DNA from: an uncultured Verrucomicrobiae bacterium | Lineage (GTDB): Bacteria; Verrucomicrobiota; Verrucomicrobiia; Limisphaerales; Palsa-1400 | DNA length: 64,000 nt | Assembly (NCBI GenBank): GCA_963764165.1 | Contig: CAVXRD010000002.1 | Span: 2,624,001-2,688,000, forward strand | Direction: 5' to 3' | Translations under genes and position numbers: made by a program | In this document: positions 4,850-61,609 of the stretch, in pieces | How positions within the stretch are numbered: position 1 is the first letter of the stretch | Layout: each line of letters begins with the position of its first letter | Notes under the pieces: model-generated | The model's database searches: none | What the model was told of the DNA's origin: nothing | The model's input: only the letters and a program-made list of their open reading frames with translations

Positions 4850-7177
4850 ATGGTTCGCCAGATCAAATATGTTCTCTTGATGGGATTGGTTTTCGCGCTG
4901 TTCCTGCTTGGGTGCGCCAGGCCGGCTTGCGCGCAAATTCTTTCCAACGGTGGATTCGAGGCAGGCTTGAGCAATTGGAGCGCCCGGCTCGCGGTCGGCG
5001 GCGCCGCCGTGTTTGCAAATACGACCTCCGACATCCATTCCGGCACCAATGCCTGCCTGATCTCTGTCTCCGATGCCGGCACTTCTCCGAACTCGGTGCG
5101 CCTCGTCAGCAGCACGTTTACGGCGAGCGCGGCGGATACGTACGTTTTGAGATTTTGGGCCAGCGCGAGCGTGGATTTCGCCAATTTGGGAATTAATATT
5201 ATCGGAGCCATGCCGACCGCTCCATTGATTCCGTTCGAGATTTCCACCAACGAGGACAACTATCAGGAATACCTGTTCGCCTTCAAAGCGAGCGGGCAGG
5301 CATCGATTGCCTTCAATTTTCAAACGGCCGGAAATTACTGGCTCGATGACGTCGAAGTGTTGGATCTTACCAACAACGACGGATGGGACATCCCGATGAC
5401 GTATCTCTGGCAATGGGGGCAGGAACGATATTCGCTCACGAACTCAGTGGGATGGGGCGGAGGCGACAACGACAAATCGGTCCTTCTGCCGGACGGCAGT
5501 GTGGCTTGGATTTTCAACGACACATGGACGGAGACCTTCAACTTTTATTCCAACATTCACGGCGGCGGCGACCTCCCGCGCAACAGTGTCGTGCATCAAG
5601 TGGGCACCAATCTTTACATGCTGAAAACGAGCACTGTTTTCGTTCCGACGAACACGAACGATCTTTATTGGATCGGCGGGCCAGTGGTGGAAAGCAACAA
5701 GCTGCTCGTCCTGGTCAGCGAAGTGAATGCCACGGCGATCACGCGCGTCGGAACTTCTATCGCGCAGCTATCATTGCCCGCTCTCACGCTTGACAGCATC
5801 ACGACGGTGGCGTCACCGGCTTCGGACGATTACAACCCCGTGCTTAATGGCCAGGACGGATACTACTACATTTACTGGGCATCGAACAATTTTGTCCGCG
5901 TTGCGCGAACGCCCGTCGGCCAGCTCGCCGTCAGTTCGGCGTGGAATTATTGGACGCCCGGCGCGTGGGTCACGAACCACTCGCAGGCCGTCCCGCTGCC
6001 GTATTTGCAGGGCGCATGGTCTTGCGCGCAGCTTGGCGTGAGCAATTTCGCGATGGTTTACATGCCGGATTTGGATTGGAATATCGTGGCGCAATTCGCT
6101 CCGACCCCACTGGGCCCGTGGAGCGCTCCCATTAATGTAGTTGACACACCGTATCAATGGGGCGAGCTGAATTACATGCCGAACATCTGCGCCGGAACCG
6201 GCAGCAACGGGCTTTACACCATCGGCTATTCCGACAACGGATCGCCGGACGGGCTGGCCAAAGTCGCCGCAGACAAGTCGTATTACAATCCGCATTTCGT
6301 CACCGCCAACTTGCTGGCGCTCTCGCCATTTTCGGCCATCGCGGGCGCAGGCGGCCCCGGTTCGCGCATCTCGATCAAGTTCGCCGCCGACCAGGATTAC
6401 GGGAACGATCTCGTGAACGTCACCCAGCCGGCGGGAGTTCTCAGCTCGAGCAACTGGTTTAATTTTTTCGGGCCGGACAGCGCCAGCAAAGGCGCGACTA
6501 ACGTTCCGTTTTACTCCTCGCAAGGCCAGCGTTATCAATCCTCCGCGGTGCTTGTTTATGATTGGGCGGGCGAAATCAACCTCATCGGAAACAACGCGCC
6601 TTTGAGCAACAACGTGGCGCTGATGAACAGCTTCATCAATGTGCAGAACAACGGCTGGTATCTGTCCGTCACCAATCTCGATGCGCCGTTCACAAATGGA
6701 TATTCGGTTTATTTTTACTATCAAGGTGGAGAGGTTGGTCGCGGCGGCCAAAATTATCTGCGCTATTACAGCGGCAAGACGACGAATGGAGCGTCCACCG
6801 GGCTTGAGCGCTGGGATTTGTACTCGACAGCGGCGACCAACAACGGCGTGTTTGTGCAGGGCCTGACGCCGTTGTCCACGAGCGCGGCCAACGAAACGCC
6901 GAACGCCAATTACTGTGTGTTTACAAACCTCTATGGCGGCGCTTTCAGCTTGATGATCACCAATGGAAATTACGGCGGCATCAGCGCCATTGAAATTGTG
7001 GCCAGCAGCCCGCCGCTCTCCGCGCAATTTGTGAACGGAAATATCGTATTGACGTGGTATCAAGGCACGCTCCAGCAAACAAGCGACCTCACTGCTCCGT
7101 GGTCAGATGTCGTCGCCACGTCGCCTTATTCGCTCCCGGCGACTGCGCCTCAGCAATTTTTCCGGATCGCGCCGTAA
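4850..7177 (+). CDS. Secreted modular protein: CBM4/9-like domain, DUF5005/DUF4185-like propeller, beta-sandwich, ~55-aa C-terminal domain
   Basis: Signal peptide; ILSNGGFEAGLSNW...YWLDDVEV; GWGGGD..SVLLPDG..WIFNDTW, PRNS, YW, GPWS, YSDN, YNPHF. Confidence 0.7.
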   Translation: MVRQIKYVLLMGLVFALFLLGCARPACAQILSNGGFEAGLSNWSARLAVGGAAVFANTTSDIHSGTNACLISVSDAGTSPNSVRLVSSTFTASAADTYVLRFWASASVDFANLGINIIGAMPTAPLIPFEISTNEDNYQEYLFAFKASGQASIAFNFQTAGNYWLDDVEVLDLTNNDGWDIPMTYLWQWGQERYSLTNSVGWGGGDNDKSVLLPDGSVAWIFNDTWTETFNFYSNIHGGGDLPRNSVVHQVGTNLYMLKTSTVFVPTNTNDLYWIGGPVVESNKLLVLVSEVNATAITRVGTSIAQLSLPALTLDSITTVASPASDDYNPVLNGQDGYYYIYWASNNFVRVARTPVGQLAVSSAWNYWTPGAWVTNHSQAVPLPYLQGAWSCAQLGVSNFAMVYMPDLDWNIVAQFAPTPLGPWSAPINVVDTPYQWGELNYMPNICAGTGSNGLYTIGYSDNGSPDGLAKVAADKSYYNPHFVTANLLALSPFSAIAGAGGPGSRISIKFAADQDYGNDLVNVTQPAGVLSSSNWFNFFGPDSASKGATNVPFYSSQGQRYQSSAVLVYDWAGEINLIGNNAPLSNNVALMNSFINVQNNGWYLSVTNLDAPFTNGYSVYFYYQGGEVGRGGQNYLRYYSGKTTNGASTGLERWDLYSTAATNNGVFVQGLTPLSTSAANETPNANYCVFTNLYGGAFSLMITNGNYGGISAIEIVASSPPLSAQFVNGNIVLTWYQGTLQQTSDLTAPWSDVVATSPYSLPATAPQQFFRIAP

Positions 7178-9898: not shown

Positions 9899-12800
9899 AT
9901 GCGCGTTGTCCGACATGAAAAAAGCTGGCTCGCCTCGCTCCTAATCGCGGGGATGTGCCTGCATGGCATCGCGGCGGCTCGCGCGGAAGCGGACGGCTCC
10001 CCCCCAATCATCACGAACATTTCGCAACTTTCTCAGGACTTCGAGAATCTCTCCGCGCGCGCCCGGATTCGCGCGGAACTCACCGGCACCGTTTTCATCG
10101 GCGGATCCAACGAGACGGTGGTTCTCATTGACGGCGATTCTCAACCGCATGTTGTCAAATCAAAAGATGGCCAGGCGTTGAATCGCGGCCAGCGGGTCCT
10201 GCTGGAAGGTTATTGCATCCGCGAGGGGACCAATTTGCTCACCGATTCGCTGCCGCTGATCGACAATGACGGGACGCACTCGATGTCCGCAAAATCAGCG
10301 GGCGCGTGGCTTGAGGCCGGCTGGCAGCCCATCGAAGTTCGCTACTTCAATCAACTGGGCGACCGTGGATTGGAGGTTTCCATCGAGGGGCCCGGCCTGC
10401 AGCCGCAAACGATTCCCAACTCGATGCTTTTTCATTCGGAGCGGGAGCCGGGCTTGCTCTATCAATGTTTCGAGGGCGAGTGGCTCGCCATGCCCGATTT
10501 CAATTCATTGAAACCTTTCAAGTCCGGTGTCATTTCCAATTTCAACATCGACGTGGCTGGCCGCGAAACAAATTACGGCGTCACTTTTTCCGGGAGCATC
10601 GCCATTCCGAGCCCTGGATTTTACACGTTCACCTGCCGTTCCGATGACGGCTCGCTGGTGTTTCTTGGGAATGATTTGTTGACAGCAAAAGCCACCGGCG
10701 CGACAAACCTGCCGCCGCTTCCGATTTGCGGCGCGGGCCAATCGCTGGGCGCAAATCCGGCCAGCGGAGAATTTTGCGCCGCGCTGGAGGGGGTGGTCAC
10801 CTTTGCGGCGGTGGACTCCGGACATCTCAATATTGAATTATCCGGTGGCCGCGAACACGCGCTCCTTCAGATGCCGAATGCGACGGGCGTTGTCCCGCCT
10901 GATTTGATGGGTTCGCGGATTCGGGCCGCCGGGATTTGCCGGGCGACGTTTACACCTGACGGAGATCATGTGGCGGGATTCTTGCGGGTTTCGGGCGAGG
11001 AGCAAATCCAGATTCTCCAAAGCTCTCAACACCTGCGTCCTTCGGCCCTGCCGGGAACGGAAGGCGGACTGCCAATCCTCACCACCATTGAGCAAGCAAA
11101 GCAAATGAGCCGCGAGGAAGCAAAGCGCGGTTATCCCGTCCGCGTGCGCGGAGTGATTACGTTTGTGTGGCCCGACGCCGGATTTTTTCTCCAGGACGCG
11201 ACGTGGTCGATTGAGGTCCAAATGACCCCGCAGATTTCGCGGGACAAACCGCGCATTGGGGACTATTGGGAAGTCGAAGGACAAACGCTGGCGGGATTCG
11301 CGCCGGACATTCGCGCCACGCGCGCGGCGCGGCTGGGGCTTGGAGTTTTGCCTGAACCCGTCCGCCCGAATTGGGGCCAATGGCTGGATGGCAGCCTTGA
11401 CACCGAATATGTGGAACTGGAGGGCATCGCTTCGTCCTCGGACGAATCCTCGCTTTCATTGTTGACGCGCGGCGGACGGCTGACGGTGCAATTGCCGGAA
11501 TTGCCGCAAAAAAAATTGGCCGAAGTGCAAGGGGCGCTGGTAAGAATTCGAGGCTGCCTCATTCCGGGCCGCGATCCCGCAACGCAGCAGGTGAAGCTCG
11601 GCTCGTTCGCCCTTCGCAACGCATCCCTCGCCATTGAGGAGGCGGCCCCGGCGGATCCGTTTGCGATGCCATCGGAGCGGACGGCGGATTTGCTGTTATT
11701 CGAATCGCACGCGAGCCCCATCCGCCGCGTCCGGCTCCACGGCGTTTTTCTCCTGCAGCACGACGGCGTTTGCTACCTGATGGATGGCACGAACGGATTG
11801 CAAATTTCGCCCAAACACGCGGTGGACTTTCACGGCGGCGATTTGGTGGATGTGGTGGGTTTTCCCAATTTGGACGGCCCGTCGCCTCTGTTGCGGGATG
11901 CCGAAATGCGTGCCACCGCTTCCGGGCCGCTTCCGCCGCCGCGGACAGTTTCGCCGACAAATTTATTCGGCGAGGAATATGACTCAACACTCGCGCAGAT
12001 CGAGGCCGTCCTGGTGTCCTACCGGATCAGCGAGGCCGATCAAATTCTGCAACTGCGATCCGGCCAGCGCCTTTGGACGGCGCGCCTGCCGATCAGCGCC
12101 GGCAAACTGCCGAGCATCGAACCGGGCAGCGTCCTGCGCTTGACAGGCGTTTACACCGCGCAAGGCGGTGACCGCGCGGCCGGGCGACCGAGCGAATCGT
12201 TCGAATTGCTCTTGAGCAGCCGGGCTGGCGTGGTGGTGCTGCGGCAGCCGTCGTGGCTGACGGCGCGCCACGCGCTCGTGGTGGCGGGCGCGCTTCTGGC
12301 GACGCTGCTGCTGGCCTCGATTTGGATTTGGGCGCTCAAGCGCGAGGTGGATCAGCGCACGGTGGAGCTGAAAGTGGAAATCGAAGACCACAAGCGAACC
12401 GAATTGGAGCTGGAGGAAAAAACAAAAATGCTGACGCGCGAAATCGAGCAGCGCGCCAAGATGCAGGTGGAAATCGACCGGGGCCATCGCGAACTCCTGA
12501 TCACTTCGCGGCGCGCCGGGATGGCGGAAGTGGCGACGAGCGTGCTGCACAATGTCGGCAACGTTCTCACAAGCGTGAATCTTCTCGGAACGTCCATCAT
12601 GGATCGTGTCCGCGATTCAAAAATCGCCAGCGTCACCAAGCTTGGCGAATTGCTGAAAAGCAACAAGCCGCGCCTGAACGAATTCCTGACCTCGGACGAG
12701 CGCGGAAGAACGGTCCCCGGATTCGTCGAGCATCTCGGTGAGCGGCTGCAGCAGGAGCACACGGAATTGATCGGGCTGGTGAAGTCGCTCAACGATAGCA

Positions 12801-13348
12801 TTGACCACATCAACGAAATCGTTTCGACCCAGCAGGCTTACGCGAAGATTTCCGGCGTGCTGGAGACGGTGGCGCCGGCGGAAGTGGTCGAGGACGCGCT
12901 TCGCATGCACGGCGAGGCGCTGCACCGCCACGGAGTCGAGATCGTCCGCAAATTCACCCACACGCTGGCGGCCACGATGGATCGCCACAAAGTCCTGCAA
13001 ATCCTTTTCAACCTGCTCGAAAACGCCAAACATGCCTGCATGCAAACACCCGAACCGGACAAACGGGTGGTGATCACGGTTGAACCCGCGGCCATCAGCC
13101 GGATTCGCATTGTCGTGGCCGACAATGGAATTGGAATTCAGCCGGAGAACTTGCCGCGAATTTTCGACCAGGGATTCTCGACGCGCCGGGACGGCCACGG
13201 CTTCGGTCTTCACAGCAGCGTCCTGGCGGCGCAAGACATGGGCGGCAGTTTGTCAGCGCAGAGCGACGGGCCGGGAAAGGGCGCGACGTTCACGCTCGAA
13301 CTGCCGTTGACGCCGCCCGCCGCAAAACACACAGCGAACGGATCATGA
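9899..13348 (+). CDS. Membrane sensor histidine kinase with large periplasmic region (permuted PA14 plus OB-fold-like repeats)
   Basis: Signal peptide, PA14 motifs (SDDGS, IDNDG.H), repeated V.V.G.VT units, single TM helix, H-box ATSVLHNVGN, N-box NLLENA, DNGIGI, GHGFGL, GKGATF. Confidence 0.92.
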   Translation: MRVVRHEKSWLASLLIAGMCLHGIAAARAEADGSPPIITNISQLSQDFENLSARARIRAELTGTVFIGGSNETVVLIDGDSQPHVVKSKDGQALNRGQRVLLEGYCIREGTNLLTDSLPLIDNDGTHSMSAKSAGAWLEAGWQPIEVRYFNQLGDRGLEVSIEGPGLQPQTIPNSMLFHSEREPGLLYQCFEGEWLAMPDFNSLKPFKSGVISNFNIDVAGRETNYGVTFSGSIAIPSPGFYTFTCRSDDGSLVFLGNDLLTAKATGATNLPPLPICGAGQSLGANPASGEFCAALEGVVTFAAVDSGHLNIELSGGREHALLQMPNATGVVPPDLMGSRIRAAGICRATFTPDGDHVAGFLRVSGEEQIQILQSSQHLRPSALPGTEGGLPILTTIEQAKQMSREEAKRGYPVRVRGVITFVWPDAGFFLQDATWSIEVQMTPQISRDKPRIGDYWEVEGQTLAGFAPDIRATRAARLGLGVLPEPVRPNWGQWLDGSLDTEYVELEGIASSSDESSLSLLTRGGRLTVQLPELPQKKLAEVQGALVRIRGCLIPGRDPATQQVKLGSFALRNASLAIEEAAPADPFAMPSERTADLLLFESHASPIRRVRLHGVFLLQHDGVCYLMDGTNGLQISPKHAVDFHGGDLVDVVGFPNLDGPSPLLRDAEMRATASGPLPPPRTVSPTNLFGEEYDSTLAQIEAVLVSYRISEADQILQLRSGQRLWTARLPISAGKLPSIEPGSVLRLTGVYTAQGGDRAAGRPSESFELLLSSRAGVVVLRQPSWLTARHALVVAGALLATLLLASIWIWALKREVDQRTVELKVEIEDHKRTELELEEKTKMLTREIEQRAKMQVEIDRGHRELLITSRRAGMAEVATSVLHNVGNVLTSVNLLGTSIMDRVRDSKIASVTKLGELLKSNKPRLNEFLTSDERGRTVPGFVEHLGERLQQEHTELIGLVKSLNDSIDHINEIVSTQQAYAKISGVLETVAPAEVVEDALRMHGEALHRHGVEIVRKFTHTLAATMDRHKVLQILFNLLENAKHACMQTPEPDKRVVITVEPAAISRIRIVVADNGIGIQPENLPRIFDQGFSTRRDGHGFGLHSSVLAAQDMGGSLSAQSDGPGKGATFTLELPLTPPAAKHTANGS

Positions 13349-38944: not shown

Positions 38945-38990
38945 TAAACCCAATTCGGCAGAAGAATTGCTTGCAATGGAAAAATGGAAT

Positions 38991-40889
38991 ATGAAAAAAA
39001 CTGAAATCCTCCAGTCAACAACAGCGCGCCGTTCGTGGCTTGCCGCCCCGGTGGCGGCGCTTGCCGTCCTGGCCGCATGGGATCCCTCCCTGCGGGCGCA
39101 GTCAACCAATTTAAATGTAGCGAATTTTGGCGCGGTTGGGGACGCTGTCCAACTTTGGGTCAATGCGACCAGCAACTCGACGGTCATCACAACCACCAAC
39201 CAAATCCCCAGCACCGCCGTTGGCGATGCGATTGAGGTGTTTTGCGCGGGCACGCCCACCGGGCCGACAAACAATCAAGATTTGATTGCCACGATAACCC
39301 AGGTGGCTGAAGGCACAAATATCACCATTTCGCTGCCGGCGTGCGCTTCGCTCACCAACGCGTTTGCCACCTACGGGCACAATAACGAAACAAACTTCGC
39401 CAACGCCATCGCCGCCTGCGGGGCGTCCACCAACGCCGTCATCAACATCCCCGCGGGCAAATACCTCTTTCTGACAACTTATTATCCATCCGTTATCTTC
39501 GGAAGCGCCGCCATCGTCCTGCACGCAGGGGGCATTCACTTTGTGGGGGCCGGAAGCAACAACACGACTCTCTTAAGCCAGGGCGCGTGGACAATGCAGG
39601 CAGGGTCAGCGTGGCGGGGCTTCCTTTTTTGCATCAATCCACCCATTACAAACGATTATCCGGTCAGCATCGAGAATCTTACCCTGGATGGCGGTGTGTG
39701 GCAGGGCAACACCAGCAGCCACGGCTTCCCCGCCAGCATTACCAATGGCATGGGCTGGGACGAGACTCACGACGCCATCGTGATTCGGGGCGGCAATGGC
39801 ACACAGAGGGTATTCACCCAGCAAACGTGGACCAACGTCGTGTTCCAGCATTGGCGGGGAGAGATGGTGAAAAGCAATGAAGAAAGCACCAATGGCAATC
39901 TCAACATTTTCAATTGCATCTTCAACGACGGCAATGCGACAGCCATCAACATCTATCCATCGTTGAACATCTCCAACAGTGTTTTCGAGAACCTGTTTCA
40001 AGTGGCGGAGTATTACCAGGCGTACTCGACCAACACCTGCTATTTTCAAAACAACTATGTGACTAACATCACGGGCAATGGTTTTGCCATTAACGGCGGA
40101 AAGGGCACGAATCCGCCGTTTATCATACAGAATAACACCCTGTGTTTTCCCTCCTCCGGTTACAATGGAGTGGAGACAACGCCGGGAGACAATCTATTCA
40201 TCATCAGCAACCACTTTTACTGCCAGCCCCATGGCACAGTTGTCACCATGGGATGCCCCGGCTATCAGGGAACATGGTGCAACAGCAACATCGTGATCGC
40301 CGGGAATATTGTTGAAAATCCGTACGTTTTCGCCGCAATAGCCGGAGGAGGCAGTTCAACAGATCCGAACCGGACGGACACCGTTTCCATATACAACAAT
40401 GTCCTTACAAATGCGTCAAATGCCTTCACCCTGTTTAACTCCTACGGATGGGCGACAAACGTTCATGTCTTCAGCAATGATTGCAGCTCGATCGCCATGG
40501 CAATCACGGCCTCATCCGGCGCCAATGGAAGTCCCTTCGCGCTGGTTGACCTGAACAATTCGTATTATACCTATGTGAATAGTTCCTCGGCCACCACAAA
40601 TTATATCAGTTATAGCAAGGGCTCGCGGTATAAAATAAACTTTAACTACGTGGCTGGCGCTTCGTATGTGCTGACGGCGACGAACTCAAGCCAGATTCCT
40701 GAGGGCGCGCAGATCATGGTTCAAAATGCCACCGCGCAATCCGCCACAGTGCCTCTTTATCTAAACTCTCTCCAGGCAGGAGGCCCATTTTCTCTTGCCA
40801 ACGGGCAATCTGTCACTTTTCAGTGGCAGAATGGGGCCTGGCTGCCATATGTGATGCCGCCCACCGGGTTGCATGTGGTGGGCAATTGA
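38991..40889 (+). CDS. Secreted right-handed beta-helix (pectin-lyase-like) protein
   Basis: Signal peptide; NVANFGAVGD, INIPAGKY, FVGAG..T.L, IENLTLDG, Asn-ladder repeats; ends PPTGLHVVGN. Confidence 0.75.
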   Translation: MKKTEILQSTTARRSWLAAPVAALAVLAAWDPSLRAQSTNLNVANFGAVGDAVQLWVNATSNSTVITTTNQIPSTAVGDAIEVFCAGTPTGPTNNQDLIATITQVAEGTNITISLPACASLTNAFATYGHNNETNFANAIAACGASTNAVINIPAGKYLFLTTYYPSVIFGSAAIVLHAGGIHFVGAGSNNTTLLSQGAWTMQAGSAWRGFLFCINPPITNDYPVSIENLTLDGGVWQGNTSSHGFPASITNGMGWDETHDAIVIRGGNGTQRVFTQQTWTNVVFQHWRGEMVKSNEESTNGNLNIFNCIFNDGNATAINIYPSLNISNSVFENLFQVAEYYQAYSTNTCYFQNNYVTNITGNGFAINGGKGTNPPFIIQNNTLCFPSSGYNGVETTPGDNLFIISNHFYCQPHGTVVTMGCPGYQGTWCNSNIVIAGNIVENPYVFAAIAGGGSSTDPNRTDTVSIYNNVLTNASNAFTLFNSYGWATNVHVFSNDCSSIAMAITASSGANGSPFALVDLNNSYYTYVNSSSATTNYISYSKGSRYKINFNYVAGASYVLTATNSSQIPEGAQIMVQNATAQSATVPLYLNSLQAGGPFSLANGQSVTFQWQNGAWLPYVMPPTGLHVVGN

Positions 40890-47052: not shown

Positions 47053-47874
47053 CTAGGCGTTCGAAGAACCTTTTCGAAACTTGCGAACCGCGCCGACACC
47101 GAGCGGAACCAACATCATGGCTCCCGCGACGATCGTGCTGGGTTCAGGGGTGGGCTCACCCAGAAGGAAGAATTCCTGGTCATCTCCCCCATTAGGGCCA
47201 TCGCCAGGGGCGCCAGTCCCTTGAAGAATGCTGCCATTATAAATGGGCATGTTGGGACCTGCATTCAACAAGGCGTTAATGTAAGCGTTGTAATCCTGCT
47301 GCTCGCTGGCATCAAATTGAGCAAATGGCGCCGAATACCCCGCTGAACTGAAAGACGACTGGCCGTAGGCGGTGCTGTTGTATAATACATTCCAGATCGC
47401 AAATTGCAGGGCGCAACCCTCTTCGCTCGCATTGCCGGCAAGATGCAAACCCGAGGTGGTTTGATCGACAATGTTCATGCCAAAGGTATGCCACAAGTAG
47501 GCCGCGTTGCAAATCCCCCAATCCTGAGTTTGTCCATGAACAACCCCCGATGCCCATTGCGAAGGGAAAATTCCTGGACTCGCTTGCGCAAAGGTCTCCT
47601 GATTGTAGGTATGCGTGTTTCCGTCGAGCAAACCCAGCGGGCTCAGACAAACGCTGTAAATCGTGTTTGGCAAGGTTATCCCAGTGGTTCCGGCCGTGTT
47701 GAATGCATAGATTCCAATGGCATCATCCGATTGAGCATCCCCGCCGGTAAAACCATCCTCCCAGACGCTGCCACTCCATTGGAACGTAAGGGTGATGTCC
47801 GCATGTGCTGTGCACATTCCCGCAACCCCGGCAGCAAGCGTCAGCGCCAGTTTTCCGATTGATTTCAATGACAT
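47053..47874 (-). CDS. PEP-CTERM surface protein with thioester-domain-like motifs
   Basis: Signal peptide; YSVCLSP and ALQFAIW; C-terminus TPEPSTIVAGAMMLVPLGVGAVRKFRK. Confidence 0.9.
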   Translation of the reverse strand: MSLKSIGKLALTLAAGVAGMCTAHADITLTFQWSGSVWEDGFTGGDAQSDDAIGIYAFNTAGTTGITLPNTIYSVCLSPLGLLDGNTHTYNQETFAQASPGIFPSQWASGVVHGQTQDWGICNAAYLWHTFGMNIVDQTTSGLHLAGNASEEGCALQFAIWNVLYNSTAYGQSSFSSAGYSAPFAQFDASEQQDYNAYINALLNAGPNMPIYNGSILQGTGAPGDGPNGGDDQEFFLLGEPTPEPSTIVAGAMMLVPLGVGAVRKFRKGSSNA

Positions 47875-48051
47875 ATCGCAGATGATTATGATTTAACGGC
47901 CCGAACTATCTATGCGAGTTTAGGACAAGCGAGGTTACTTTTAGGACACTGGCGTGCAACCCCCGGTCATCAGCTTGGGATGAGACGTGTTCAGATGTTT
48001 CCTTAGATGCTGCCATTAAGCAACTTGTGCGCTTCACGGTTGCAGTGCGCC

Positions 48052-49716
48052 TTATTGTCGCGCCAACTCAAATAGCCGCTTTTCTTCGGGAAGGTGGCGG
48101 GTCTTCTCGGCAATTTTTAGATACTTTTGTGCCTTTGCAGAGTCCCCGTTCGCTTTCAAGATGATACCGTAATATCCCGCGACGCTCGGATTTTCCAATT
48201 CGCCTTCATTTAATTTCTCCATGACGCGCAGCGCGTCTGGATTTTTCTTCTGAAGGAAGAGCGAGAAGGCATATGTCGAGGCGAAGGAAGAGTTTGTCGG
48301 GCTGCTTTGGTAAACCTCGCGCGCCATATCGTCCGGCTTAAGGTCCTTCTGCCCAAGCAAGAGCGCCGTCATCGCCAAGTTGTTCTTGTACAACAGGTCT
48401 GAAGGCTGTGACTTAACCTCGGCGCGAAAGAGGTTAAGGAGGGATGTTGTGCGGGAATCAAGGAAGAAAATAGTCGCCAGGGCTTGCACCGCCCACCTCT
48501 CGTCCGGGTGCTGCCTGATAATGGTCCACAACAACTCTTCCGTCTCCTTCTGCCAGCCCCACGACGCGGCAAGCTTAAGAAGCATGGTTTGGTTCATTTT
48601 TTGGCCCGCCGCAGCGGCCAGAGCTTGATCCCACTGGCCTTTGGAGGACTCAGTCAAGTCCAACTGCTTGAGGGCAAACGACAGAAACGCGTGCCGAACG
48701 AAGTCCGAGCCCGCCCAATTCTGCTTTTCGAGCGCCTTTTGCATCCCTGACCAGTCCTTGGCAATGATTTGGAATTCCGCCGAAAGCAAAGCCGCTGGCT
48801 GGTTGGTGCGGGTTGCCGGAGGAAGGCTGGTCAGCCAGGCAAGACCGTCGCCAATCTCACCGTGGGTTTGCTGCCACGTCGCCAATTGATACAGTTTGGT
48901 GGGGTTGCTGGAGGCCTCATGCTCGCAATTCGTCATAAACGGTTTGTATTCAGAATTGTGAGCGGCGCGAAGCACTTCCAATCGCGCCATGCGATCGCTG
49001 AAGTCCGCGTTGGTGGCATCCACGAGGTCCTTGGATAGGCTCAGCGCCGCGGAATCGTTGGTAAACCGCACCGCATCCCCGATCAACTCACGCATCGCCT
49101 GGTGGCGAAGCACCGCATTGGTGGCGTTCACGCTCAAGCTCTGCAGGGTGATGCGCGCTTTCGCAATGGCCTCTTTATTGGTTCCGCGGATATCGACCAT
49201 GGACAGATCAAGGAGAGGCATGGGATTTTGGGGATCGAGCCGCGAAGCCTCCGCAAAATGCTCTTTGGCCGTTGAGAACATATTCATCGCGGCGAAAACG
49301 CTTCCCGCCACAGTTTGATATTCGACGGATTGCTTCCCTTCCTCGGTCACGCCCTCCAAGGCGTTTGTTGCCGTGGGCAAATCCCGGAAAATGACAGCTG
49401 CCTTGGCCAAAGCCAGCCGATCCTCGGTGGATTTTGGATTTAGTTCAACCGCCAGCGAGCGCCAAAGCATTGCTTCCGGAGAGCGGCTCGATTCAAGCAC
49501 TTCCGCAGCCAGGCGAGCGCCTTCGAGATTTCGGGGATTGGTGGCCAATGCCATTCGCAGGCTCAAAATAGCGTTCCGATTGTCTGAATTGGCATAAAAT
49601 TGCCGGGCCATGGAAAGAAGATGCTGCTGCTTCCACACCAAATAAGCACGATACCCAGCGTAAAGAACAAGAATGGTTAAAGAACACGATATTAGCAGGA
49701 CGAATAACTTTCGCAT
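48052..49716 (-). CDS. Membrane-anchored periplasmic TPR protein (PEP-CTERM/EPS system associated)
   Basis: N-terminal TM; helical repeats (A..LNP, LDPQN, KNNLA, STYAFSL). Confidence 0.75.
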   Translation of the reverse strand: MRKLFVLLISCSLTILVLYAGYRAYLVWKQQHLLSMARQFYANSDNRNAILSLRMALATNPRNLEGARLAAEVLESSRSPEAMLWRSLAVELNPKSTEDRLALAKAAVIFRDLPTATNALEGVTEEGKQSVEYQTVAGSVFAAMNMFSTAKEHFAEASRLDPQNPMPLLDLSMVDIRGTNKEAIAKARITLQSLSVNATNAVLRHQAMRELIGDAVRFTNDSAALSLSKDLVDATNADFSDRMARLEVLRAAHNSEYKPFMTNCEHEASSNPTKLYQLATWQQTHGEIGDGLAWLTSLPPATRTNQPAALLSAEFQIIAKDWSGMQKALEKQNWAGSDFVRHAFLSFALKQLDLTESSKGQWDQALAAAAGQKMNQTMLLKLAASWGWQKETEELLWTIIRQHPDERWAVQALATIFFLDSRTTSLLNLFRAEVKSQPSDLLYKNNLAMTALLLGQKDLKPDDMAREVYQSSPTNSSFASTYAFSLFLQKKNPDALRVMEKLNEGELENPSVAGYYGIILKANGDSAKAQKYLKIAEKTRHLPEEKRLFELARQ

Positions 49717-49734
49717 AAGTAGCTCAAATTGCGA

Positions 49735-51717
49735 CTAAACAGGGTTCTGGAGAGTGCCCGAAAACGGCGGAACTCCCGTCTCCGGGGCTGTCGACGGGGC
49801 TGGTAAAATGCTGTCCTCCGCGGCGGGCGTCACAGGCGGATGCGAGTTCAGCAGCAAATGATTTTGAAATCGCCATTCGGTAAGGGTTAATCCTCGTTCA
49901 GTGGCCAATCCCCGAAGTTTGGCCATGGCCTCTTCGCGCAACGCGGTCGTAATGACGATGCCGTTGATTTTATGCCGGCCAATCAACAGCGGCAGCTCAT
50001 CCAGTCCACCGAGCACCATGACGCCGTAGACCCACTGGAAATGCAGCGACGGCTCGTCGTCGATCAACCCAACGACATGCCTCCCATCAAAGCTGCTGGA
50101 ATTGTTGAAGCCGCGCTCCCGCAAAAACAACTGGCACCGGCCGCCAGCGCCATACAGGAGAATGCGGTCGCTCTCCTTGCCGATATCGGGTTTCATTCGC
50201 AGATAATCCAGCATCTCCTCGACGCACCGATACGCCACCCGAACCGCCAAGATTCCCGTATTGGCGAAAGCGCCAATAATGACGGCCCTGATAAACGCGG
50301 TGGATGTCCGCGTGGGATCGATCATCAAAGTGATTCCCACGCTGATGACAAGACCAACCAAGAGCGTTAATTCCAACGTGAGAATGTCGAACAGGCGCGC
50401 GCGCTGCCACACAATGACGTAGGTGCGGGACATCGCCAGCAGCGAGATGGTCGGCGTCACCCAGATTGGCAAATCAACAAACCACGTATGCCAGAAGTTT
50501 GCGGTCGGCGGGTCGCAATACCTCATGGCCAGCGCGCGGGCGGCGCCCAGGCAAATGACGTCCCACACAGGCACCAGAAGGGCGCGCAGCGTCGATTGGG
50601 AGGGCCGCTTCAACCCTGTCAATAATACTCTGCCCGTTTCGCGCAGCTCAATGACGGCCATGCGGCGCAGGAGCACGTAAGCGACAACCAAGACTGTAAT
50701 CAGAAAAATGCCGGTCGTGCGGGCATGAAAGGTCGTCAGCAGCAAACCAAAGAAAACCAGCATCGCATTGGTGAAAAAAAGCGTGGACGCGACTCGAGGC
50801 GTGCTCAATCCGGTCTTGGCAAGACGGTGATGCAGATGATCCAAATCAGGCTGCATAATCCCTGGACGCTTCTTGCTTCCGCCAGCGACAGCGGAAGCCA
50901 GGATGCCACGCATGGTGCGGCGCCATATGGCCAGCAAAGCATCATAAATAGGAACGCCAAGCACCATCATCGGGATTCCCAACGAGAGGGCAAAGGTGTT
51001 TTTGTTGTAGGTCTGGAGCGCCACCGAGCCCAGGATAAAACCGAGAAACATGCTCCCGGTGTCGCCAAGAAAAATTGTGGCCGGATGAAAATTATACCGA
51101 AGGAATGCCAGGCATGCGCCGATCAACCCCAGCAACACCAGGACGTTTCCGGGAGAATGATTGATGGCGAAAATTCCGCCCAGCCCAATCGCTGAGATCA
51201 CGGCCAGCCCCGAGGCCAGCCCGTCCAGGCCGTCGATTAAATTAAACGCGTTAATGGTCCCCAAAAGCCACAATTCCACCATGAGGAAGTCCAGCCAGAC
51301 CGGCAGCGGGCATCCGAAAATTTCACCGAACCGGGCGCCATTCAAAAACATGATCGCGGCGGCGGCAGCTTGCCCGGCCAGCTTCACGAGAGGCTTCATC
51401 CCCCGAACATCGTCCACCAAGCCGACAACCAATAACACCAGAGACGCTGGCAGGAAGCCTTGCCACCAATGGAAATCAAGATCGGCGGAAAATTTCGGCC
51501 ACGGGAAGAATAATCCGACCGCGCAAGCTGCGTAGACGCCCAGAACAACGGCCACCCCGCCGGCCCGCGGCGTCACGCGTTTGTGCGGCCGCCGCGCGTC
51601 CGGCTTGTCCACCACACCGAATCGAATCGCCAGAGCGCGGACCAGCGGCGTCAGGACGTAGGTGACGACAACTCCGCAGAGGAATACCGTTATATACTTA
51701 TCGAGGTAGCCAAACAT
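49735..51717 (-). CDS. WecA/MraY-family initiating phosphoglycosyl transferase fused to a CapD-like TM and Rossmann-fold region
   Basis: GLVDD, NAFNLIDGLDGLA, YNFHPA.IFLGDTGS, HLHH; C-terminal LLYGAGG, VGLIDD, VLGG. Confidence 0.88.
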   Translation of the reverse strand: MFGYLDKYITVFLCGVVVTYVLTPLVRALAIRFGVVDKPDARRPHKRVTPRAGGVAVVLGVYAACAVGLFFPWPKFSADLDFHWWQGFLPASLVLLVVGLVDDVRGMKPLVKLAGQAAAAAIMFLNGARFGEIFGCPLPVWLDFLMVELWLLGTINAFNLIDGLDGLASGLAVISAIGLGGIFAINHSPGNVLVLLGLIGACLAFLRYNFHPATIFLGDTGSMFLGFILGSVALQTYNKNTFALSLGIPMMVLGVPIYDALLAIWRRTMRGILASAVAGGSKKRPGIMQPDLDHLHHRLAKTGLSTPRVASTLFFTNAMLVFFGLLLTTFHARTTGIFLITVLVVAYVLLRRMAVIELRETGRVLLTGLKRPSQSTLRALLVPVWDVICLGAARALAMRYCDPPTANFWHTWFVDLPIWVTPTISLLAMSRTYVIVWQRARLFDILTLELTLLVGLVISVGITLMIDPTRTSTAFIRAVIIGAFANTGILAVRVAYRCVEEMLDYLRMKPDIGKESDRILLYGAGGRCQLFLRERGFNNSSSFDGRHVVGLIDDEPSLHFQWVYGVMVLGGLDELPLLIGRHKINGIVITTALREEAMAKLRGLATERGLTLTEWRFQNHLLLNSHPPVTPAAEDSILPAPSTAPETGVPPFSGTLQNPV

Positions 51718-51771
51718 GAATGGTTTTCGTTTTAAGTGGCGAGCCTGCAGTTCGCCTGCCTGACCCGGACT

Positions 51772-52968
51772 TCAACCGCATCGTTCTAACATGTTGGCAA
51801 TCATGTCGCAAGTGGCGTTCATGTGAAACCGCGCGCGCGCGAAGTTCAAGGCGGCTTCGCCCCGGCGCGCGCATTCGGCGCGGTCAGACGCCTGTTTTAC
51901 CGCCTCGAGCAATGCCACCTCGTCATTTTGTTCGACAACCCAGCCTCCCCCGGATTGCATAATCCATTCCGCGGTTTCACACTTTGTGCCCCCGACATAG
52001 AGCACCGGGCGGCCGACCGCAAAACTCCCCTGCAGCTTGCTCGGAACAATCGTGCCTTGCCAATTGGCGTCGAGGCTTACCAGATGCACATCGGCGGAGC
52101 ACAGGTGCGCGCGCAGCTTGGCCGCTGGAACGTAACCCAGCATCTCGATGTTCGCGCCAGGATGGGATTTCGCGAACGATTCCACTTCGCTCCGGCGTTT
52201 CCCGCCACCGCTGAAAACCCAGCGGGGGCCGGATGAACCGAGGTGCGCCGCCGCGGCGAGGAACTCGCCAAAGCGATGTCCCAGCCCCATATTTCCTGAA
52301 TAAAGAAAAATCGTCTCGCGATTCGCCCATCGGCGCTCGGCGCGCAACGCATCCACCGCTTCTGGAGCAGCCGGACCGAGGCTTGGGTCACTCCAAAGTG
52401 GCGCCCATTGAACCGCTGGAGCATACAACGACACGCGTTCCGCCATGCGCGGCCCCAAGGCAAGCACCAGCTTTGCGTTCCTGAGTTGAGCCTTCGTCAT
52501 CTGTTGGAGAAATCGGTAAAGCAGCGATTTATTCGAAGTCATTCCGTGAGAAGCCATCACGTCTGGATACAGGTCCATAATCCAATGAGCATGGCCGCAC
52601 CGCCGTGTCCAAGCCGCGAACCTGGCCAGGACTCCAGCGTAGGGTGGCGTTGTCAATGAGAGGATTAAATCCGGCTTGAATTTATCCAATGTTACCGCGC
52701 CGGCTAAAGACGTGTAGAATGTGGCGTAATCGCTCATTTTTCCAACGAAGTTCTTTCTCCCCAAGCCAGTGGCGAACAGCCGCCGCACTTCCACACCATC
52801 CCGGACCTCCCGCGGCGCAAAAGATTGCGTCCCGTCATACGAATTTCGGGAGCACAGAACTTTGATCGCATGGCCGCGCTTGGCGAGCGATTTTGCCAGA
52901 TCATGAAGGTAGACGCCGGTCGGCGCGACGTCCGGGGGATAAAATTGATTTATGAAAAGCAGGCGCAT
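51772..52968 (-). CDS. GT4 glycosyltransferase (WcaI/WbuB-like)
   Basis: INQFYPPD, TTPP, MDLYPD, YSGNMGLGH, VPSKL. Confidence 0.9.
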   Translation of the reverse strand: MRLLFINQFYPPDVAPTGVYLHDLAKSLAKRGHAIKVLCSRNSYDGTQSFAPREVRDGVEVRRLFATGLGRKNFVGKMSDYATFYTSLAGAVTLDKFKPDLILSLTTPPYAGVLARFAAWTRRCGHAHWIMDLYPDVMASHGMTSNKSLLYRFLQQMTKAQLRNAKLVLALGPRMAERVSLYAPAVQWAPLWSDPSLGPAAPEAVDALRAERRWANRETIFLYSGNMGLGHRFGEFLAAAAHLGSSGPRWVFSGGGKRRSEVESFAKSHPGANIEMLGYVPAAKLRAHLCSADVHLVSLDANWQGTIVPSKLQGSFAVGRPVLYVGGTKCETAEWIMQSGGGWVVEQNDEVALLEAVKQASDRAECARRGEAALNFARARFHMNATCDMIANMLERCG

Positions 52969-53020
52969 GCATGACGAACAGCTTAAAATTCACGCAAAGG
53001 AATCCGAGTGGTCATTTCGA

Positions 53021-54661
53021 CTAAAGCCGAGCTTGTGCCGCCGGCTGCTTGACTACAATGAATTTCTCCAATTCACGCTTGAGGGCCAATTCCGCCTGGT
53101 CCGCGTCGGGGCATCCTTGGATCATGAATTCAATGACCTTTTGCCCATGTTTTCCACGCCCGTTCCAGATGGCGCGAATCAAATTGAAACGCGCGGAGTC
53201 CTGCGCCACATACTTATCGTCGTCAACGCCAGCCTCCCAGCGGCAATGGTAAACATACATCGGCCCGAGGGCTGTTTTGAAAAGATAACTGCGCACAGGA
53301 AGCACAATGCCTTTGACGCGCACAAGCGAAAGGGTCGGCCCCGATACCAGGCGATTGCCGACCGCTGTCATGCAAATCTCGGGCGTGTGCCGCTTGGCAA
53401 GGTAGCCGGCCACGCGGCCTGCGTCCCAATTAAAATAAAAGCCGTTCCAGTAATTCCCATCGGAGTCCTTCCACTCTCCTTGCTCTCCGTCGTCGAATTG
53501 CAGGAGTTTGCGGGTTTTATCTGTCATCGCAATCTCCTTGAAGGTTGGGTTATCCTTCGGAAAATTGAGGCTCCAATCGGGGCCCGGCTTGATGCGCGCC
53601 TCACGGCTCCGGAACCATGTTTCCACTCCCACATCCGCCATGGCAATCCAAATGCAAACAGCGCAGGAGGCGAAAATAAATTGCCGGGAGCCCACTCCGG
53701 GAATCGGCTCAGGGCTGGACGCGCACTCCGGTGCCGCCTCAAGTTTTTTTCGCGACATAAGCCATGCCAGCAGCCACAGCATAGCCGTGCAGACGAACGT
53801 AATGCTCAACCCTGCCTCGTCATGATATTCGCCGACCGCCGAGACCCCCTTTTTCGCCGCCGCGACAGTGAGGATCGTCACGCGGCCAATATTGCACGCC
53901 ATCGCGACGGCGAATCCAAACGGAACGAGCAACAGCCTGCGCAAGACTTTCATGCGGTAGTATTCGCCGAAGAAGAGGGAAATCATGAAGCTGGTTTGGA
54001 AAGAGCGGATGCCGCTGCAAGCCTCCTCGACTCCAACCATCCCTTTGCCAACTTCAATGACGTTTCCGTGCTGCAACGCTGGAATGCTGATGCACCCCAT
54101 CAATTCCACCACCACTCGCGACGTCAAGCTGGTCAATCCCTGGATCAGGGGACCTTCAATCATCGACACCCATGGCACGGCCACCAGAAAGAAGCCAATC
54201 GGGAAGGCGAGTTCCTTCAGCCATTTTGGACCCATGAGAAGATAAATCGCGCAGAGAGTCAGCCCGACTGATTCCACTCCAAGCATCCACTGGATGGGGC
54301 GCCACTCAGGCGTCGCGCCTTGAATCAGGTGCGTGGGCAGGTATAAAAACGCCAGCAATAATCCAGGCGCAAGAACTGGAAAAGACATCCTCTGTTGGAT
54401 GCGCGGGCAGCCGGCATTGATCATCTGAACGCGGCGGAGAATCAGGCCCGCGCACAGAATCGGGACGACCCACCCGTAGCTGTATTGCGGATTCGTGCTC
54501 CACTCTGGCGCGACGCTGTCGATAAACTGATACCACAAAAAGCTGATCGGAAGAAAGGTGACAATCCAAATGAAGAGGGAATTTCCGCTCGCTTTCGGTG
54601 TGTCGCCGCTCGAAACGCCGCGGGCCGCGGTCAAATTTTGGGGGGCACTCATGAAATTCAA
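53021..54661 (-). CDS. Exosortase fused to an EpsI-like periplasmic domain
   Basis: YSYGWVVP, VEEACSGIRS (Cys), NIGRV (Arg), YHD (His); C-terminal HTPEICM. Confidence 0.92.
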   Translation of the reverse strand: MNFMSAPQNLTAARGVSSGDTPKASGNSLFIWIVTFLPISFLWYQFIDSVAPEWSTNPQYSYGWVVPILCAGLILRRVQMINAGCPRIQQRMSFPVLAPGLLLAFLYLPTHLIQGATPEWRPIQWMLGVESVGLTLCAIYLLMGPKWLKELAFPIGFFLVAVPWVSMIEGPLIQGLTSLTSRVVVELMGCISIPALQHGNVIEVGKGMVGVEEACSGIRSFQTSFMISLFFGEYYRMKVLRRLLLVPFGFAVAMACNIGRVTILTVAAAKKGVSAVGEYHDEAGLSITFVCTAMLWLLAWLMSRKKLEAAPECASSPEPIPGVGSRQFIFASCAVCIWIAMADVGVETWFRSREARIKPGPDWSLNFPKDNPTFKEIAMTDKTRKLLQFDDGEQGEWKDSDGNYWNGFYFNWDAGRVAGYLAKRHTPEICMTAVGNRLVSGPTLSLVRVKGIVLPVRSYLFKTALGPMYVYHCRWEAGVDDDKYVAQDSARFNLIRAIWNGRGKHGQKVIEFMIQGCPDADQAELALKRELEKFIVVKQPAAQARL

Positions 54662-56405: not shown

Positions 56406-56413
56406 AGCCGCTC

Positions 56414-57685: not shown

Positions 57686-57687
57686 GC

Positions 57688-59410: not shown

Positions 59411-61609
59411 CTACTCTGCCTCAGCATTATTGCTGGCCTGATAGTCTTCGTGCTTGTAGTAGTAGTACGAGCGGTTCTCGGCGTCCGCGCCATTGAACAC
59501 AAGCCCGATAACCTTGACTTGCCGTTGAGCAAGCAGATCCAGGGCTTCTTTCACCACACCCGCCGAAGAAAAGCGGTTTCGAACGACGAAAAGTGTGGCA
59601 TCCGCCTGAGGAGCCAGTGTCGGCGAATCATCCGCGGCAAACACAGGACTCGTGTCCACAAGCACATAATCGAATTCCTCCCGGAATTTGGCAAAAGCAA
59701 CACTGAGTGTTGGGCCAATAAAAAGATCGCCGGGGTTTGAGGTGGGATTGCCATGGGAAATGAAGTAAAAGGAGGAGAAACCGTCGCGCTGGAGAACTTC
59801 ATTAAACTCCGCTTTTCCTTCCAGGTATTCCGCAAAGCCCGGGCCGGAGCGCATCGAGAGCACCTTGTGCAGATAGCCTTTTCGAAAATCCGCATCGACA
59901 AGCAAAACGCGTGAACCGCCCTGAGCCAGAGTTCGCGCGAGATTTGAAACTACAGTTGACTTTCCTTCTCCTGGTATCGCACTTGTGACAACCAATATTT
60001 TCGGACGCTTCTCCTCCGCTGGCATGAAAAATATCGCAGAGCGAAGATTCCGGTACGATTCGGCGGACATATGACTGGCGTCCTTGAAGACCTCCATGCC
60101 GCCGGATGGGCCTTTAAGAAGCGGCACCTCAGGCACCTGCCCCACGATCACGTCGCCGAAGCGATCATTTACCTCGGAAATTGAATTAAATCGGTCGTCC
60201 CTGATGGTGATCAAATAAACCAGGCCAAAGCCGACCGCCAATCCCGCAAAAACTGAGATCTGAATCGCAAGAATCTCTTTGGCCAGACTCCGCCTGGCCA
60301 AAGAGGCCGATCCAAGCACGGACATCGTGTCTTGTTCAATGTTCCGGCTTATATCCACATTTTGCAGCATTTGCGTCAGGCGATCGTAAACGGTCTGTGT
60401 GCGAGCCACATCCAGTTTCAGCTTGTCCGCCTCAGCAACACGCCGATTGGCGTCTGTTACCTTTTGTTCCCATTCCTTGATCGAAGTGATTACGCTTGAA
60501 GCTTTGCTCTGGTTCGATCGAATAGAAGCCAAAAGCAGCCATTTTGCCGATTCGTAAGAGGCGTTCATCTGCTTGAGGTTCCGCGACCTCGCAAGCTCAA
60601 CAAGCTTTTCGTCGGTGGCAATCTGCTCATCGAGCTTCACAATCTTCGGGTGCTTCGGGCGCAGGTTCTTGCTTAGTTTTGCGCGCTGGAGCCTGAGCAT
60701 TTCAATTTCCTCCTCCGGAGACAACTGATTCGGAGCGCCCATCAGCGCCATGCGGGATCCCTCGAGGCCGCGGGAACCATTCGTGCTCGCAGCATCGTTT
60801 GTTGCGCTCGAGGCAGAGGCAGTGTTAGTGCGGGCAGCCTCTTCCATCACCTGTTTTTCGGAGGCGGCAAGCATTTCAGAGTCAAGACGGAGGTCGGACA
60901 ATTCCGTTTGCAGCTTGGCAAGGTAAGCTCCCGCCACCCTCCCCTCCTCTTCGAGAACCGCAAGATTATTGCTTTGTTCATAGCTTGTCAGCGCCGCCTG
61001 TTCTTGCTTCAGCTCGCTTTCCATTCTCAGCACTTGTTCCGAAATCGAGGCGAGCGTGTCTCCCGAGACGGTCTTGCGAATGTTCTTCTTGTAATCAAGG
61101 TACACATTCAAAAGAGCATCCAAATAGGCTTGGGAATAGGCGGGGATCGGGCTCGTCGCCTCGATCTGAAATATCTTGCTTTTGGGAACTTCCTTCACGC
61201 CGATTGCCACCACCGGCGGTCTGCCGTCTTTGCCAAGAGGAATGCTCTTTGGGTTGAGCGATTGTATGCGGGCCAGGGTTCTCTGGGCCATCTCTCCGCT
61301 GCGAAGCAATTCGATTTGGGTGCCAAGATAGGTGACGGAATTATCGTTAAATGAAGCCCCTCCCGGCAACGTGAGTTTTTCCGGCTCCCACATTGTCGCG
61401 GTTGATGTATATTGCGGTTCCACCCAGTGGAACGCGGCCCAGGCGCCGGCAAGGCCAAGAAGAAGCGTAATGGAAGGGATCCACCAATAGCGGCGGAGGA
61501 ACAGCACGTAACGGCCGAGTCTTCCACTGGATCCGGCGCCCGCCGCGGGCGGCTCTGGCGCTCGAACTGGATACCGATTGTCCTCGTAGGGAACTGGCGA
61601 GTAAGTCAC
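59411..61609 (-). CDS. wzc: Polysaccharide co-polymerase / tyrosine autokinase
   Basis: Two TM, coiled coil with PKHP, ESYRNLRS, GEGKS, VDAD.R, VDTSP, C-terminal YYYY. Confidence 0.93.
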   Translation of the reverse strand: MTYSPVPYEDNRYPVRAPEPPAAGAGSSGRLGRYVLFLRRYWWIPSITLLLGLAGAWAAFHWVEPQYTSTATMWEPEKLTLPGGASFNDNSVTYLGTQIELLRSGEMAQRTLARIQSLNPKSIPLGKDGRPPVVAIGVKEVPKSKIFQIEATSPIPAYSQAYLDALLNVYLDYKKNIRKTVSGDTLASISEQVLRMESELKQEQAALTSYEQSNNLAVLEEEGRVAGAYLAKLQTELSDLRLDSEMLAASEKQVMEEAARTNTASASSATNDAASTNGSRGLEGSRMALMGAPNQLSPEEEIEMLRLQRAKLSKNLRPKHPKIVKLDEQIATDEKLVELARSRNLKQMNASYESAKWLLLASIRSNQSKASSVITSIKEWEQKVTDANRRVAEADKLKLDVARTQTVYDRLTQMLQNVDISRNIEQDTMSVLGSASLARRSLAKEILAIQISVFAGLAVGFGLVYLITIRDDRFNSISEVNDRFGDVIVGQVPEVPLLKGPSGGMEVFKDASHMSAESYRNLRSAIFFMPAEEKRPKILVVTSAIPGEGKSTVVSNLARTLAQGGSRVLLVDADFRKGYLHKVLSMRSGPGFAEYLEGKAEFNEVLQRDGFSSFYFISHGNPTSNPGDLFIGPTLSVAFAKFREEFDYVLVDTSPVFAADDSPTLAPQADATLFVVRNRFSSAGVVKEALDLLAQRQVKVIGLVFNGADAENRSYYYYKHEDYQASNNAEAE

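Follow-up and report, generated by a model that had tools for sequence, protein, structure and literature searches.

A Thr-Asn sequon-like signal in the predicted exported proteins of a Verrucomicrobiae lineage, and a TMEM260-related candidate enzyme

Background

General O-glycosylation in the Bacteroidota uses the motif (D)(S/T)(A/I/L/V/M/T/S/C/G/F), according to the portion of PMC8698959 available. Human TMEM260 is a protein O-mannosyltransferase which defines family GT117 and for which distant bacterial homologues have been noted (PMC10214176, in the sections at hand). A preprint reports that TMEM260 modifies Thr/Ser in extended peptides, with D441 acting as the base, and that D52, H67, R264, Y267 and D441 are essential (bioRxiv 10.64898/2026.03.17.711096). 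The present work concerns the Thr-Asn (TN) dipeptide in predicted exported proteins of an uncultured Verrucomicrobiae bacterium (genome G000, 7.0 Mb, 97% complete), beginning with a tetratricopeptide repeat (TPR) protein encoded in a stretch of 64,000 nucleotides, here called the window (G000:C2:2624001-2688000), and a candidate modifying enzyme, family A. A sequence-only reading of the window had proposed that TN marks extracytoplasmic segments and is the acceptor motif of a general glycosylation or other modification system, possibly fed by one of the two glycan pathways encoded in the window.

TN excess across the genome

In proteins of this lineage that are predicted to be exported by Sec, selection acts on Thr-Asn at the level of the protein, and TN is a real, strong and lineage-specific sequon-like signal. 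With genes called by our own dicodon open reading frame (ORF) caller (5,050 in G000) and observed/expected ratios (O/E) computed throughout from each protein's own composition, TN ranks first among the 400 dipeptides both in secreted soluble proteins (n=1,117; 4,694 observed against 2,206 expected, O/E 2.13) and in secreted proteins with a single transmembrane (TM) helix (n=169; 1,456 against 661, O/E 2.20). The second rank in secreted proteins is held by CH, which we take to be part of the CxxCH haem-attachment motif and which serves as an internal positive control. If TN is indeed modified, about 944 of the 1,286 predicted secreted proteins of G000 would be concerned, with approximately 3,300 TN sites in excess.

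The excess persists after per-protein and local composition correction, as the sequence-only reading would have it, the 6,150 observed TN comparing with 2,937-3,183 in local shuffles. In secreted proteins the O/E is 0.81 for NT, 0.94 for SN and 0.98-0.99 for gapped T..N. Repeats offer no explanation, since 5,997 of the 6,150 sequence contexts are unique, and TN lies above expectation in 497 of 645 testable proteins. The excess is confined to the reading frame (off-frame O/E 0.76-1.27), is present in all four quartiles of T+N content (1.9-2.2) and in 8 of 8 TN codon pairs (1.4-2.8 times the cytoplasmic rate), which are uneven in use, and still amounts to 1.55 (1,571 against 1,016) when the 256 TN-richest proteins are removed. 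Proteins with neither signal peptide nor TM helix (n=2,314) have an O/E of 1.20, a value largely produced by misclassified secreted proteins; the 61 members of the class with secreted homologues reach 2.10. Short cytoplasmic proteins (below 400 amino acids, aa) are without excess, at 1.01-1.04.

The TPR protein and its TN sites

The protein and its nine sites are as follows.

48052..49716, minus strand: TPR protein, 554 aa, N-terminally anchored, all-helical and PrsT-like, at the end of an exosortase/exopolysaccharide cluster
49537..49542, minus strand: TN 59-60, helix end; TN in just 5 of 120 family members
49363..49368, minus strand: TN 117-118, within a helix; retained in 114 of 120
49177..49182, minus strand: TN 179-180, loop; TN in 98 of 120, SN in 21 of 120
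49117..49122, minus strand: TN 199-200, loop; 99 of 120
49057..49062, minus strand: TN 219-220, loop; column not conserved
49009..49014, minus strand: TN 235-236, loop; 118 of 120
48928..48933, minus strand: TN 262-263, within a helix; column not conserved
48802..48807, minus strand: TN 304-305, loop; 118 of 120
48292..48297, minus strand: TN 474-475, TPR P-x-N turn; 114 of 120

With 31 Thr and 28 Asn, 1.6 TN are expected in this protein, which has 9 TN and 0 NT; nine or more were reached by 2 of 200,000 shuffles. Its TIGR02917 (PrsT) score of 64 bits falls under the curated cut-off of 312 and leaves it outside that family. In 120 sequences of the TPR family, for which conservation counts are inflated by kinship, there are 789 TN against 179 expected, and six of the sites are retained in 98-118 sequences. 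The Thr preceding Asn is conserved at 0.83 and other Thr at 0.42, while Asn at conserved TN sites stands at 0.88 and other Asn at 0.58. At variable sites T and N co-occur 21 times against 5.8 expected and 55 times against 31.

In the structure model (predicted local distance difference test, pLDDT, 91.8), loops and helix ends hold seven of the nine TN, and in five cases Asn directly precedes a helix start. Thr occupies the x of P-x-N turns in 18.6% of cases in secreted proteins, 5.8% in cytoplasmic proteins and 5.6% in genomes without the candidate enzyme described below. Structure alone fails to explain the Thr, because these turns favour it only in secreted proteins of the TN genome.

Candidate enzyme and distribution among relatives

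Family A and its paralogue, family B, are encoded at the following positions.

G000:C4:588331-592245: family A, 1,304 aa, TMEM260/DUF2723 (GT117) homologue outside the window
G000:C2:413416-416343: family B, about 980 aa, degenerate TMEM260-like paralogue

For each of 50 relatives (20 of the same order, 14 of other orders of the class and 16 of other classes) the sample consisted of two stretches of 20 kb; 40-kb samples of G000 itself span O/E 1.03-2.46 over all genes, which shows the sampling noise. The TN O/E of secreted proteins is 1.67 in the order and 0.83 in the other orders of the class; the other classes are split, with a pooled value of 1.2. The PF11028 profile matches in G000, in 20 of 20 order genomes, in 1 of 14 other genomes of the class and in 12 of 16 from other classes, the weak match of G006, on a shorter PMT_2-type ORF, being counted as enzyme-less. 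Among 14 control genomes it matched only in Bacteroides thetaiotaomicron.

Among the sampled relatives, TN excess is found only in genomes with a TMEM260-related enzyme. A non-cytoplasmic O/E of at least 1.25 is reached by 14 of 20 order genomes, by 6 of 12 other carriers and by none of the 18 relatives without a long DUF2723/TMEM260 protein; TN outnumbers NT in 18 of 20, 9 of 12 and 1 of 18, respectively. In non-cytoplasmic proteins of the 18 enzyme-less genomes TN has rank 372 of 400 (175 against 223 expected). Profiling against candidate transferases, which had been suggested together with the motif, leaves PF11028/family A as the sole candidate with a fitting distribution. As some carriers are without excess and non-carriers have none, family A looks necessary and not sufficient, with few independent clades behind this comparison. 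When a further 40 kb was added for four discordant carriers, G104 rose to 59 TN against 36, and G023, G119 and G005 did not rise. A family A query at E<=1e-30, a cut-off which misses some true carriers, had no match in 50 genomes from other orders of the class and matched 32 of 100 genomes of other classes; Kiritimatiellia are among the named relatives of the enzyme from those other classes. At 92 further family A loci the secreted neighbours have 256 TN against 154 expected and the cytoplasmic neighbours an O/E of 0.89. The counts of G016 (sample L151-L152) are dominated by a protein of 6,665 aa, in which there are 74 NT and 34 TN.

Family A scores 77.7 bits against PF11028 (cut-off 24.2) and matches human TMEM260 (9RQL) with E values of 2e-15 to 4e-16. 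Its D80, H95, R367 and Y370, equivalent to human D52, H67, R264 and Y267, are kept in 31 of 31 aligned sequences. D656 is kept in 29 of 31 and lies 8 residues past the Asp equivalent to human D433; it is probably the equivalent of the human catalytic base D441. The model of family A has a glycosyltransferase C (GT-C) fold, with ArnT, Emb, STT3 and DPY19 as top fold matches. A GT2 gene, possibly the donor synthase, is near family A in 14 of 92 loci. The tails of 58 family A proteins have 191 TN against 88 expected, and 119 Kiritimatiellia-type tails have 132 TN and 173 NT with 90 expected.

An extracytoplasmic function (ECF) sigma-like gene often lies on one side of family A (49 of 92 loci) and grpE-dnaJ-rsmE-like genes on the other (20-24 loci), both named by eye from the sequences (L212 downstream; L261-L340). 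A short copy of 494 aa (G000:C1:270709-272064) has Gln at both acidic positions. Family A is also present at 43-49% identity in records labelled Bifidobacterium or Bifidobacteriaceae (L246, L247, L250), labels that are probably wrong.

Family B is homologous to family A (hhalign probability 99.3) and was found in 20 of 20 order genomes. The donor-site motifs around D52 and H67 are absent from every aligned B sequence. B-like proteins are clear in 6 of 11 carriers of other classes and weak in one. In 16 of the 20 genomes of the order, the B gene and a GT4 gene are adjacent. The conserved gene group at G000:C2:411001-417600 (L211) comprises an RNA methyltransferase gene, family B, the GT4 gene and a WecA/MraY-like gene, and may represent a separate pathway for a lipid-linked glycan. 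A second B copy (G000:C2:777917-779953) was matched in three pieces, and the B gene of G182 is likewise split.

Compartment limits and context rule

Ser/Thr kinases have 42 TN against 17 expected outside and 6 against 7 inside, and histidine kinases 24 against 9 in inter-TM loops and 12 against 25 in catalytic cores. Substrates of twin-arginine translocation (Tat) show no excess (60 proteins, 26 against 43), and 16 Tat proteins of relatives have 9 TN against 10. The label 'extracytoplasmic' given by the sequence-only reading therefore holds for secreted proteins and is too broad, as Tat substrates, outer-membrane barrels and PEP-CTERM proteins are without excess. The compartment pattern would fit an enzyme acting on chains exported unfolded.

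The context rule is T-N-[not P]-[not K/R]. In G000 the O/E is 1.06 for TNP, 0.67 for TNx[KR] and 2.29 for TN[^P][^KR], and the corresponding values in the 20 order genomes are 1.07, 0.71 and 1.69. The favoured context stands at 1.70 in the 92 independent family A loci and at 0.67 in enzyme-less genomes, where TNP is favoured (1.9).

Proposed mechanism and rival explanations

The best explanation, to which we give a probability of roughly 0.5, is that TN serves as the acceptor signal of a general periplasmic O-glycosylation of Sec-exported chains, carried out by a TMEM260/DUF2723 (GT117) enzyme. Taken separately, it is probable that TN is a modification site, rather likely that the modification is a glycan and about an even call that the modifying enzyme is family A. 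Family A would bind a polyprenyl-phosphate sugar, the presumed donor, in its membrane module; its periplasmic lobe would grip Sec-exported chains presumably while they are still extended; and the sugar would be moved to Thr if Asn follows and neither Pro nor Lys/Arg blocks the next positions. Thr rather than Asn is taken as acceptor because TMEM260 is an O-transferase, and modification of extended chains after Sec export is proposed because Tat substrates are without excess and because of the mechanism reported for TMEM260. The sequon put forward by the sequence-only reading has thus passed the computable tests and gained a context rule and a candidate enzyme; the modification itself is a prediction. 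The suggestion that one of the two window glycan pathways feeds it found no support, the fitting candidate lying elsewhere (G000:C4:588331-592245), although the window glycosyltransferases were not profiled and a donor common to both may exist.

It is unlikely that family A is merely co-distributed and that TN is glycosylated by another enzyme (B alone, TMTC-like, PglL-like or unrecognised). The presence of B throughout the order and its position beside GT4, followed in G000 by the WecA/MraY-like gene, would suit this explanation, and of the 14 PMT_2 and 10 Wzy_C matches of G000 only some were profiled. However, B is without the D52 and H67 motifs and no B-like protein was found with a B query in the TN-rich G003 and G104. 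At E<=1e-40 the TN-rich G184, G195 and G200 lack the GT4 gene, which five TN-poor genomes without the enzyme do have; TMTC-like genes occur in 16 copies in the TN-poor G045, and six further candidates fail the presence test.

Just as improbable is a non-glycan periplasmic modification of Thr (phosphoglycerol, phosphoethanolamine or acyl) or a chaperone or sorting signal. Any periplasmic reader of a short motif would agree with what was found on compartment, context and lineage, but the sole gene found to track the trait belongs to a glycosyltransferase family, a weak objection given that non-glycan candidates were not profiled.

Lower again in our estimation is a sugar on the Asn amide. TN would then be a non-canonical sequon for N-linkage in which Thr occupies -1, read by a GT-C enzyme other than STT3, possibly the A/B pair. 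As with N-X-S/T, the excess is lost where Pro comes right after Asn; Asn is conserved at the sites as well as Thr (0.88 against 0.58 for other Asn), and Thr is selected and Ser not, which resembles the preference for N-X-T over N-X-S in N-glycosylation. On the other side, no STT3/PglB/AglB match was found in G000 (97% complete) by a search which in a control matched 4 archaea, the enzyme with a fitting distribution comes from a family of O-transferases in which Asp is the general base, and site 179 swaps Thr for Ser (21 of 120) with the hydroxyl kept. A structural or mutational origin (Asn caps, Thr in beta-rich secreted proteins, codon-pair bias), the least likely account, agrees with the loop and helix-end positions of seven of the nine TPR sites, five with Asn just ahead of a helix start, and with the uneven codon pairs, but is largely refuted by P-x-N turns without Thr preference in cytoplasmic proteins or enzyme-less genomes, by rank 372 of 400 in the latter, and by an excess present in all composition quartiles and 8 of 8 codon pairs and in frame only.

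Several points weigh against glycosylation of TN by family A, in addition to two differences from described systems taken up in the final section. The TN modification is a prediction from sequence statistics; signal peptides and TM helices were assigned by simple hydropathy rules, so the protein classes are noisy and heuristic. The cross-genome figures cover 40-80 kb per relative with expectations of just 3-67 TN sites each, the O/E line of 1.25 was set after the data were seen, and the genome profile covers few independent clades, so that a rank test gives no valid p-value. Six of the 20 order genomes fall below 1.25, family A carriers without excess are G023 (4 against 13), G119 (23 against 32) and G005 (18 against 16), G089 has an O/E of 1.01, and the excess of G003 comes largely from one protein (15 of 27 TN). 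A cruder first split of kinases gave 1.59 for the cytoplasmic part, and loops of multi-TM proteins show no contrast between inside and outside (1.71 and 1.55). The Tat contrast was not family-matched, with only 3 Tat/Sec homologue pairs. Outer-membrane barrels (28 against 27.5) and PEP-CTERM proteins (34 against 30) have no excess, and in BamA from 30 order loci (L031-L060 set, about 8 being wrong-frame ORFs) there are 25 TN against 47 expected; 30 outgroup loci have 55 against 54. SN is not enriched (1.04-1.08 against baselines). As for the enzyme, the D656-D441 pairing was counted manually and the model has pLDDT below 50 at 657-662; TMEM260 is not among the listed fold matches of the model, the clade of G000 has NRI in place of the conserved EVY (92 loci: 50 NRI, 31 EVY, 11 unscored), and TN in family A and B proteins is abundant without conserved positions.

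Rejected candidates

The DUF1736/TMTC profile was above cut-off in 0 of 151 genomes, and PMT_2 matched in 50 of 50 and does not discriminate. The distribution of the GT4 gene adjoining B does not follow TN. Seven further GT-C-type candidates were tested for presence in 5 genomes and all fail: a Wzy_C+TPR protein and a 589-aa protein are present in TN-poor G045 and were not found in G003, an Agl23-like candidate is restricted to G045, two others match none of the five, a TMTC-like one is abundant in G045, and a YfhO-like one has just weak C-terminal matches in four. At least nine proteins of G000 combine a multi-TM N-terminus with a TPR tail (TMTC-like; L162, L166, L168, L170, L172, L177, L179), an architecture with 15-16 relatives in G149 and G045.

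A PAP2 phosphatase-ArnT-like GT-C fusion (G000:C3:20877; L161:8877-11087) loosely tracks TN in the order and is lipid A enzyme-like; it has no clear counterpart in TN-rich genomes of other classes and was set aside. Relatives of 720-775 aa were seen in 13 of 20 order genomes. BamA, tried as an orthologue probe, shows no excess in the order; it departs from the rule and adds nothing to the profile. Its NT in the order (80 against 47 expected) runs opposite to the proteome trend.

Other genes of the window

4850..7177, plus strand: secreted DUF5005/DUF4185 protein, 15 TN against 4.8 expected
9953..13348, plus strand: sensor histidine kinase, 6 TN, every one N-terminal of the TM helix
15597..17669, plus strand: secreted Ig/LamG protein, 13 TN against 6.1 expected
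38976..40889, plus strand: secreted protein with no Pfam match, 18 TN against 7.4 expected
59411..61609, minus strand: Wzc-like protein, 3 clustered TN ahead of the detected TM helix and 0 in the kinase domain
7299: GH92, 2 TN against 1.8 expected
44202: PEP-CTERM-like gene, 4 TN and 4 NT
47053-47874: PEP-CTERM-like gene, 0 TN and 3 NT
62399: barrel, 0 TN

The hand counts of the sequence-only reading for the TPR protein and the three secreted proteins were reproduced, as were its internal controls in the kinase and Wzc and its counts for cytoplasmic proteins (0 TN each in the KdsA-like and KdsD-like proteins and the AraC regulator, 1 in Gmd). It had omitted four exported window proteins which are without TN excess, namely GH92, the two PEP-CTERM-like proteins and the barrel.

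Positions 47053-63754 form a Wzx/Wzy-type polysaccharide cluster with an exosortase (53021-54661), WecA-like, Wzc, Wza and the barrel; the TPR gene and then the PEP-CTERM-like gene at 47053-47874 come after these cluster genes. A second glycan cluster (20316-44098) contains Gmd, an epimerase, an ABC transporter ATPase and several glycosyltransferases, along with an acyltransferase-SGNH fusion and the KdsD-like and KdsA-like genes.

Significance

If the proposed O-glycosylation is true, abundant soil and sediment bacteria would have general protein glycosylation with a new two-residue sequon, and such an internal tag could be useful in glycoengineering. As far as the literature was searched, no bacterial homologue of TMEM260 has had a substrate rule before, and TN would be the first. 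We know of no enzyme identified as the initiating transferase of Bacteroidota O-glycosylation; the role of the TMEM260 family, including a possible one as that transferase, would become directly testable. A broader view is doubtful at present: bacterial GT117 enzymes might be general protein O-glycosyltransferases acting at the scale of the proteome, with a sequon that changed from lineage to lineage (D-S/T in Bacteroidota, T-N here). Equally tentatively, T-N might then apply to this order and much of Kiritimatiellia with more than 900 exported substrates per genome, the inactive B might perhaps be a partner subunit, and human TMEM260 might be the narrowed descendant of a broad bacterial system.

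In the open-access literature, to which the search was confined, no Thr-Asn motif, no protein glycosylation in the group and no function of bacterial DUF2723 were found described, in agreement with the sequence-only reading, which knew of no description. The available part of PMC12645811 does not mention Verrucomicrobia or TMEM260, and that of PMC5148204 mentions glycoproteins only as food.

Comparison with known systems

STT3/PglB/AglB systems resemble TN in the exclusion of Pro right after Asn and in being extracytoplasmic. They differ in that N[^P][ST] has an O/E of just 1.06 in G000 and that in TN the hydroxyl residue stands before Asn. PglL, PglS, TfpO and TfpM share with the TN proposal a periplasmic O-linkage to Ser/Thr, whereas they are Wzy_C enzymes without a short internal sequon of the TN type, as far as the available sections of PMC12645811 go.

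The Bacteroidota system is closer. In that system hundreds of extracytoplasmic proteins bear a motif that is likewise very short (PMC8698959), and the confinement of a motif to such proteins is also found for TN; moreover B. thetaiotaomicron carries PF11028 like the TN lineage. Its fixed residue precedes the hydroxyl residue whereas that of TN follows it, and TN is a signal read from sequence. D[ST][AILVMT] is not enriched in G000 (1,638 sites, O/E 0.88). The phylum is another. The first of the two adverse differences is that the Bacteroidota motif takes both S and T, whereas SN is not enriched here.

Human TMEM260 (PDB 9RQL/9RQM/9RQN) resembles family A in sequence, in a GT-C core with a Rossmann-like and TPR lobe and in the donor and base residues, and it acts on extended chains as proposed for family A. 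The second adverse difference is that the human enzyme reads a 20-residue signature unrelated to TN, on IPT domains only, with dolichyl-phosphate mannose (Dol-P-Man) as donor. Family A is approximately twice as long as TMEM260, with extra TM helices and the degenerate paralogue B, and a core of two residues would direct it to hundreds of proteins.

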